Assembly (NCBI GenBank): GCA_963817955.1
Contig: CAWFQK010000002.1
Coordinates: 320,001 to 384,000, forward strand
DNA from: an uncultured Gemmatimonadaceae bacterium
GTDB lineage: Bacteria; Gemmatimonadota; Gemmatimonadetes; Gemmatimonadales; Gemmatimonadaceae
DNA: 64,000 nt
Direction of reading: 5' to 3'
Made by a program: the position numbers and the translations under genes. Below the pieces are notes generated by a model, which saw only the letters and a list, made by a program, of their open reading frames with translations, searched no databases and was not told the origin of the DNA. Positions 54,460 to 54,629 of this stretch are shown here, one piece after another (within the stretch, counting starts at the first letter, position 1; each line of letters starts with the position of its first letter).

Positions 54460-54502
54460 AAAAACAAAAAAGCCCGGTCCTCTCAGAGAGAGAGGACCGG
54501 GC
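54460..54502 (-). terminator. Attenuator terminator (T2) in the metY leader
   Basis: mRNA GCCCGGUCCUCUC-UCUCU-GAGAGGACCGGGC-UUUUUUGUUUUU, 13-bp perfect stem, about 30 nt before the metY ATG. Confidence 0.9.
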
Positions 54503-54527
54503 CGGTATGCGAGCTCGTGTTGGCTCG

Positions 54528-54629
54528 CTAGTCGCCTGCGCGCGTGCGCGGCACCCGTCCGTCTCTCCCATAAGGAGGAACGCACATGAGGCACATACAC
54601 ATGGGCATCGCGAGCGGCGTGAGGCGCAT
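54528..54629 (-). CDS. Putative Met/Cys-rich leader peptide (33 aa) of the metY-metX attenuator
   Basis: MRLTPLAMPMCMCLMCVPPYGRDGRVPRTRAGD*; 7 of codons 8-16 are Met or Cys; an antiterminator-complementary segment follows. Confidence 0.8.
   Translation of the reverse strand: MRLTPLAMPMCMCLMCVPPYGRDGRVPRTRAGD

Follow-up and report, generated by a model that had tools for sequence, protein, structure and literature searches.

What decides whether metY and metX are transcribed in this uncultured Gemmatimonadaceae bacterium, when a leader of about 330 nt with two terminators lies ahead of them? An earlier reading, made from the sequence alone, had placed here a ribosome-mediated attenuator with a Met/Cys-rich leader peptide, and contrasted it with the SAM riboswitches, T-boxes or MetJ that usually control met genes. 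We analyzed the locus within the window (the whole stretch of 64,000 nt) and compared it with related loci. The half of the element described in that reading proved to be real, but a promoter, a SAM-II aptamer and a first terminator directly upstream of it had been overlooked, and the leader ORF does not stand in for a SAM riboswitch but sits behind one, in series. Judging from the sequence comparisons, we consider it highly probable that the metY-metX leader consists of two transcription attenuators in series, the first reading SAM and the second reading charged Met- and Cys-tRNA. The second stop signal is most likely set by ribosomes stalling on Met and Cys codons, and metY-metX would probably be made only if both signals report a shortage of sulfur.

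The metY-metX locus and its orthologs

The metY gene (53106..54431, minus strand, as are all parts of the element) encodes a member of the O-acetylhomoserine sulfhydrylase/cysteine synthase subfamily (TIGR01326, 641.6 bits, cut-off 495) and is preceded by a Shine–Dalgarno sequence, AGGAGA, at 54445-54440. Its stop codon overlaps the start of a gene for a metX-family O-acyltransferase (52111..53109, minus strand). As the product of the latter stays below every cut-off (best match TIGR01392, 275 bits, cut-off 500), its substrate is not fixed. The upstream neighbour, outside the element, is a tRNA gene with a long variable arm (54822..54903, minus strand; RF00005, 54.1 bits), which reads as Leu by the TAG anticodon in the alignment. 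Two further observations were made in the window. An ORF of about 187 aa (54938-55501, minus strand) has a signal-peptide-like start and a C-terminal Phe, appears outer-membrane-like by eye and gave no NCBIfam or Pfam match; a Lon protease gene is split over two frames (59212-60855 and 60599-61615), which suggests a frameshift or an assembly error near 60740.

The closest named relatives of MetY belong to the Gemmatimonadota, and of the 401 genomes searched in this phylum, 114 (including the unpublished G089) have a metY match at E <= 1e-120. We analyzed 80 genome loci, the best 5 of 80 metagenome loci and 29 new loci from the phylum search, together with 80 fetched regions and 4 loci from near relatives. 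Orthologs were defined as loci from Gemmatimonadota, or grouping with them, with at least 60% identity and more than 300 nt of upstream sequence; 82 loci minus 2 duplicates gave 80 distinct orthologs.

A predicted SAM-II riboswitch and the first terminator

A sigma-70-type promoter, TTGACA-18-TATACT, with 11 of 12 consensus bases is located at 54766..54795 on the minus strand, where 0.2 such matches are expected in shuffled sequences, and transcription would start near 54759. Similar promoter hexamers were seen by eye in many metY orthologs. The SAM-II aptamer (RF00521) follows at 54684..54754 (minus strand; 33.1 bits, E 1.1e-5). Its score lies just below the Rfam gathering score of 36, though the match is full-length: at gathering thresholds the whole window yields the tRNA alone, and the aptamer appears solely in an E-value search. 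Four orthologs (L118, L124, L125 and L128) and two RF00521 paralogs of the same genome exceed the gathering score, and an Rfam search of the window leader returned neither a SAM-I riboswitch nor a T-box. On the minus strand, stem P1 is formed by 54745-54740 with 54721-54716 and the pseudoknot strand lies at 54706-54695. We observed that in 23 canonical aptamer sequences P1 is paired in 100% and the P2 pseudoknot in 90% (94% of cells overall) with 18 two-sided changes, compared to 27-47% pairing in slid registers. The promoter just 5' of the aptamer, the expression platform 3' of it and the methionine genes downstream are hallmarks of SAM-II, as far as the family is outlined in PMC1273637. We interpret the element as a SAM-II riboswitch, and binding of SAM would be expected from its family membership.

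The expression platform is terminator 1 (54660..54691, minus strand), a GC hairpin followed by U7. It competes with a putative antiterminator 1 (54681..54734, minus strand), in which the aptamer loop strand GCCGCC (54734-54729) pairs with GGCGGC (54686-54681). These two strands co-vary between loci: we found GCCGCC/GGCGGC in 15 loci, GGCCAC/GTGGCC in 8, GCCGCG/CGCGGC in 6 and GGCAAC/GTTGCC in 5, and in the other 24 of the 58 loci they match at 4-5 of 6 bases. In folding calculations the truncated window transcript adopts antiterminator 1, and terminator 1 is obtained when the aptamer is blocked. At high SAM the pseudoknot would form and hold GCCGCC, so that terminator 1 folds; at low SAM GCCGCC would pair into terminator 1 and the polymerase would continue.

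Besides the canonical form, a SAM-II-like variant with a hairpin inserted after P1 was noted at L221:1681-1800 (minus strand) and about 35 similar loci. Rfam detected it in none of five such loci, and in only 13 of 34 do all six bases of the antiterminator match.

The Met/Cys leader ORF and the second terminator

The 33-codon minus-strand ORF of the sequence-only reading is present at 54629-54528 (ATG at 54629, TAG at 54528; peptide MRLTPLAMPMCMCLMCVPPYGRDGRVPRTRAGD) and, as stated there, has no Shine–Dalgarno sequence. Its regulatory codon run at 54608-54582, M-P-M-C-M-C-L-M-C, holds Met or Cys at 7 of 9 positions, for which the post-hoc binomial probability is 3e-10 with the codon frequencies of this genome. 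For the genomic background we scanned the sequences ahead of long ORFs: 25 of these 4,464 regions contain a short ORF with five or more Met/Cys per 10 codons, and only two, one of them the window leader, reach 7. The scan takes the first ATG of each long ORF as gene start and is thus a rough baseline, and for the same reason it missed the leader of a homoserine dehydrogenase gene (see below). We rejected the second site with a score of 7 as a leader since it runs antisense to a His-rich ORF (L303:2308-3141, minus strand; 277 aa, no Pfam match), the antisense strand of which imitates a Met/Cys leader. The antisense of such an ORF is a false-positive mode for Met/Cys leader scans.

A conserved Met/Cys ORF in related metY leaders was the check that the sequence-only reading had asked for, and of the 80 orthologs, 51 have five or more Met/Cys per 10 codons and 59 have four or more. 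In 61 distinct loci a terminator is placed 5-60 nt past the leader stop; automatic calling did not succeed at L002, L236 and L250, and L225 and L099 stop at a contig edge. One of the 61, L246, has a score of 3 and an unusual spacing; we did not regard it as a leader, and the tests below use the 60 leaders that remain. Their mean run score is 5.55 in frame compared to 2.15 and 0.70 out of frame, a test that is partly circular because the ORF was chosen for its score.

The second attenuator follows directly. As described before, a strand at 54569-54549 (minus strand), beginning 12 nt past the last Cys codon, is complementary to 54504-54488, and terminator 2 (54460..54502, minus strand) consists of a perfect 13-bp stem (54502-54472; 14 pairs counting one G-U) with a 5-nt loop and a U tract (54471-54460). 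The terminator ends 29 nt before the metY ATG (54431), and its region folds at z = -6.8. Folding further predicts a small 6-bp hairpin directly past the leader stop codon (54509..54528, minus strand) and a 1:2 hairpin (54534..54606, minus strand), in which the Met/Cys run and the next 12 nt bury the antiterminator strand. Across the leaders, shuffling the tail makes this pairing of the run with the leader tail less stable in 53 of 60.

We then compared the antiterminator duplexes. In the window, the duplex has -27.2 kcal/mol compared to a shuffle mean of -18.2, with none of 100 shuffles as good. The cognate duplex beats 95% of shuffles in 32 of 61 loci and is stronger than the cross-species mean in 47 of 61, while in only 19 of 61 does it rank within the best tenth of the cross-species pairings. 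In an alignment of 56 loci that was not fitted (the 61 without L032, L034, L119, L121 and L246), 81.7% of cells at the eight core pairs are paired, compared to 74.1 in shuffles (0 of 500 shuffles as high) and 34-64% in slid registers, and 37 two-sided changes stand against 16.7 in shuffles; sequence relatedness inflates these measures, and two of the five, pair counts and pair types, are not above shuffles. The lineage forms change on both sides (GGAGAGAC/GTCCTCTC, GGGTGGAC/GTTCACCC and GAGTGGAC/GTCCACTC). In 54 of 60 leaders the distance from the last Met/Cys codon to the start of the antiterminator is 6-16 nt (median 12.5), compared to a mean of 26 and a maximum of 37 leaders with shuffled tails, in a search that began at +6. 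The in-frame run, the covarying antiterminator and terminator and a spacing compatible with a ribosome thus speak for the attenuator that had been proposed.

When both conformers were folded, the outcome depended on the length of the transcript. With the window transcript cut 6 nt before the end of the hairpin, the calculated terminator probability is 0.00 for a ribosome on the last Cys codon and 0.96 for a ribosome at the stop codon. The same cut over 61 loci gave means of 0.20 (stalled) and 0.71 (at stop), with a clean flip in 32 of 61. Shuffling the leader tail raised the stalled value from 0.21 to 0.55 (in the window from 0.00 to 0.71), and when the leader is left untranslated, the terminator probability is 0.14 in the window, with 29 of 61 loci exceeding 0.5. 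With the full hairpin at equilibrium, however, the terminator wins despite a stalled ribosome in 54 of 61 loci, window included, so control would have to be kinetic. The switch, in which a stalled ribosome frees the antiterminator strand and a ribosome that runs through covers it, is obtained in this model on truncated transcripts only.

Distribution of the tandem

Among the 80 orthologs, aptamer and leader occur together in 45, the leader only in 18, the aptamer only in 16 and neither in 1, with aptamers called by profiles built from these same sequences. Ten of the tandems have a canonical aptamer (four above the Rfam threshold, one at 30.8), and 35 of the 45 have the variant with the inserted hairpin, assigned by motif only. 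At one locus (L136:100-200) only the 3' end of the aptamer and terminator 1 are recognisable upstream of the leader, possibly a decaying riboswitch. A quick MetY tree has tandems in each of its two main subclades, with the single-module forms nested between them, which suggests that the tandem is ancestral in the Gemmatimonadota metY clade and that either half was lost separately. Of 38 distant Gemmatimonadota metY paralogs none reaches 4 Met/Cys and none has an aptamer. Full-length metY is present in 3 of 40 near relatives; none of the 24 same-genus genomes (G001-G024) has a close metY ortholog, and one has 48% identical paralogs. The metY cassette, with its adjoining tRNA gene, may have been acquired or retained patchily.

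In the same genome we observed three RF00521 matches, before a MetH-type gene, a homoserine dehydrogenase gene and metY, and no SAM-I match (RF00162). The stand-alone homoserine dehydrogenase gene is preceded by a second tandem (L301:1262-1572, minus strand; G000:C4 near 1199275-1199585; SAM-II 37.1 bits) in the order aptamer, terminator, Met-rich leader (MISMCQMQMRMSM...), antiterminator and terminator. In front of the MetH-type methionine synthase, SAM-II (L300:1501-1615, 39.3 bits) has its own terminator and no leader. Homologs of the homoserine dehydrogenase from 28 of 29 family loci and from this genome (a tally that includes the unpublished G506) showed no tandem within the stretch examined; three have SAM-II further upstream, and the two of these that are readable have no leader. 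Since many of these homologs lie in operons or fusions, the absence of the tandem there says little.

Outside the ortholog and paralog sets, 6 of 75 loci reach 4 Met/Cys, where about 3 are expected at a background of 4%. Visual inspection showed terminators after the leaders of L046 (Ignavibacteriaceae), L063 (Acidobacteriaceae), L090 (Bacteroidota), L142 and L144, as well as the lower-scoring leaders of L037 (Chloroflexota) and L143. A Cys run in Lachnospiraceae (L092) has no evident terminator and was not counted as support. The metY leader of one Ignavibacteriaceae genome (L046:1545-1960) contains MCLCCMMMCMSSRKDAA and a terminator, followed by a SAM-I riboswitch (72.4 bits) and its terminator. 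This is the tandem logic in reverse order with SAM-I in place of SAM-II, and the tandem may have arisen there again. As a separate observation, in the Chloroflexota-type metY leaders L037, L142 and L143 the Met/Cys run is followed by a conserved P-W-R-P-R-R or R-R-R-P-R and a terminator. On these comparative data we think it rather likely, with less assurance than for the metY-metX leader itself, that a widespread class of leader-peptide attenuators reads Met-tRNA and Cys-tRNA in series with a SAM riboswitch and that the tandem is ancestral here.

Nature of the second signal

Met and Cys both occur in the run of 59 of 60 leaders, as would be expected from the mixed specificity proposed earlier; the remaining leader is Cys-only and none is Met-only. 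The same tandem could nevertheless answer at its second gate mainly to cysteine, with Met codons that are incidental (parts of the 1:2 hairpin or extra starts), on the reasoning that Met starvation would also slow initiation on the leader. Cys does exceed Met in the run (means of 3.3 and 2.25), TGT accounts for 97 of 198 run Cys codons compared to 26% genome-wide, Met status is already reported by SAM, and Cys attenuators have been described as established (10.1101/834739) or predicted (uORFC-8-2) in the accounts of these systems. Such a restriction to cysteine appears unlikely to us given the presence of Met in 59 of the 60 runs, the homoserine dehydrogenase leader with one Cys and seven Met codons and the Met-dominated leaders with terminators in other phyla (L090 and L046). 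The Cys codons could have a metabolic explanation. The genome encodes a CBS-like enzyme and a cystathionine lyase/synthase (CGL-like), and no CysE above cut-off and no PAPS reductase were found in the assembly; homocysteine may thus feed both Met and Cys. The presence of a CysK and the 94% completeness of the assembly speak against this. A supply of cysteine from homocysteine, or through action of MetY/MetX on serine, would explain Cys codons in the leader.

A second possibility is that the ORF is not translated, the TG-rich run being an RNA hairpin arm, and that a protein or other ligand throws the switch or terminator 2 is a constitutive damper. The window leader has no Shine–Dalgarno sequence, the run pairs with the leader tail, and a ligand-independent second terminator is described behind the S. 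meliloti metA SAM-II riboswitch in the part of PMC9373788 on that leader. An SD-like 4-mer is present in 23 of 42 tandem leaders, 1 of 18 leader-only ORFs and 47 of 61 metY genes. Seven of the 18 leader-only loci, though, have a -35-like hexamer 35-39 nt upstream of the ATG, where it would be expected if the mRNA were leaderless. Start, run and stop share one frame in 60 of 60 leaders (true by selection), third positions in the run vary synonymously among eight close relatives, and the antiterminator has a footprint-sized spacing. We give an untranslated ORF very little credence.

Equally improbable is that the nascent peptide itself is the sensor through metabolite-dependent arrest (by SAM, or by metal or redox state via thiols) irrespective of tRNA charging: dense Cys and Met could bind metal, and Arabidopsis CGS1 is presented in PMC3083191 as controlled by a SAM-dependent arrest peptide, but we found no conserved peptide sequence up to the stall site, only composition is kept while order and length vary, the tail tolerates a frameshift (L247 has a +1 insertion past the run that alters the tail peptide and keeps the pairing strand, so that the tail matters as RNA), and a stall here would turn the operon on, opposite to what a SAM sensor would require.

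We return to the reading of the second gate as a ribosome-mediated attenuator for both charged tRNAs. From the observed sequences, their conservation, covariation and spacing we infer that the leader is translated, that ribosomes stall on it and that control is kinetic. When charged tRNA-Met or tRNA-Cys is short, the translating ribosome would stall in the run and cover the 5' arm of the 1:2 hairpin. The strand at 54569-54549 would then be free to pair with the 5' arm of terminator 2 while the 3' arm has yet to be synthesized, and metY would be transcribed. With both tRNAs charged, the ribosome would reach the stop codon and cover 54569-54549, and terminator 2 would form. The predicted output logic of the two gates is NOT SAM AND NOT (Met- and Cys-tRNA sufficient).

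Classical attenuators are not usually ascribed to methionine, and the initiating ribosome itself requires Met-tRNA. A working Met-reading leader would show how this need at initiation is reconciled with attenuation. The element would be a compact natural two-input gate of mixed type, for which single-module relatives offer built-in controls. It extends terminating SAM-II switches, including the insertion variant missed by Rfam in the loci tested, to the Gemmatimonadota. A further prediction is that these bacteria derive cysteine from homocysteine.

Comparison with known systems

Leader-peptide attenuation and SAM-II are both known kinds of control, and their combination was not found in print. 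In the literature covered, with subscription journals and supplements outside its scope, we found no tested Met/Cys transcription attenuator and no tandem of riboswitch and leader peptide; the supplementary motif lists of PMC8632094 and PMC4833913 could hold such leaders. No Met leader appears in the consulted portions of PMC2965389, PMC4833913, PMC13096801 and PMC6892785. The sequence-only reading knew of no described mixed Met/Cys leader, but such a leader had been printed: Streptomyces lividans metL before metNIQ, a prediction described as Met-dependent and without an intrinsic terminator in the passages of PMC8079986 on it. To judge from those passages, this one prediction foreshadows the Met/Cys specificity. 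It shares the mixed run in a short leader before methionine genes, and differs in that it is leaderless, precedes a transporter operon and has Cys codons that are not remarked on there; the metY leader adds a covarying terminator and antiterminator, biosynthetic genes and an upstream SAM-II.

The classical trp, his, leu, thr and ilv attenuators, as sketched in 10.1101/834739 and PMC8079986, resemble the metY leader in their short ORF with end-product codons, their 1:2, 2:3 and 3:4 hairpins, the intrinsic terminator and the biosynthetic operon downstream. The metY leader differs from them by Met and Cys codons, the upstream riboswitch, the lack of a Shine–Dalgarno sequence and its Gemmatimonadota host. 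Sensing of Cys-tRNA by ribosome stalling is shared with Cys attenuators. Mycobacterial polycysteine sORFs are described as acting by translational attenuation in the portion of 10.1101/834739 on them, and the one that was tested, Ms5788A, works on translation without a terminator; uORFC-8-2 before cysS, a predicted Cys attenuator with a terminator, has two Cys codons and no Met run reported in the PMC8632094 entry. For Actinobacteria, the relevant part of PMC1262725 gives Cys leaders that lack terminators, and reports no structure that is conserved ahead of methionine operons.

SAM-II switches with an intrinsic terminator are described in excerpts of PMC1273637 and, for S. meliloti metZ, PMC9373788. 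They have in common with the metY element P1 and the pseudoknot, a promoter just before P1, a terminator after P2 and methionine genes, while the metY element would add a ribosome-set attenuator, and many of its orthologs carry an extra aptamer hairpin. Two signals in series in one leader are also seen with mgtM and mgtP of Salmonella mgtCBR, which, as summarized in PMC3641672, has two ORFs and no aptamer. Finally, the tandems of T-box and SAM riboswitch in Bacillota, as introduced in PMC12452182, likewise join tRNA charging with SAM in one leader; there the uncharged tRNA is read by RNA binding, whereas in the metY-metX leader charging would be read by the ribosome.
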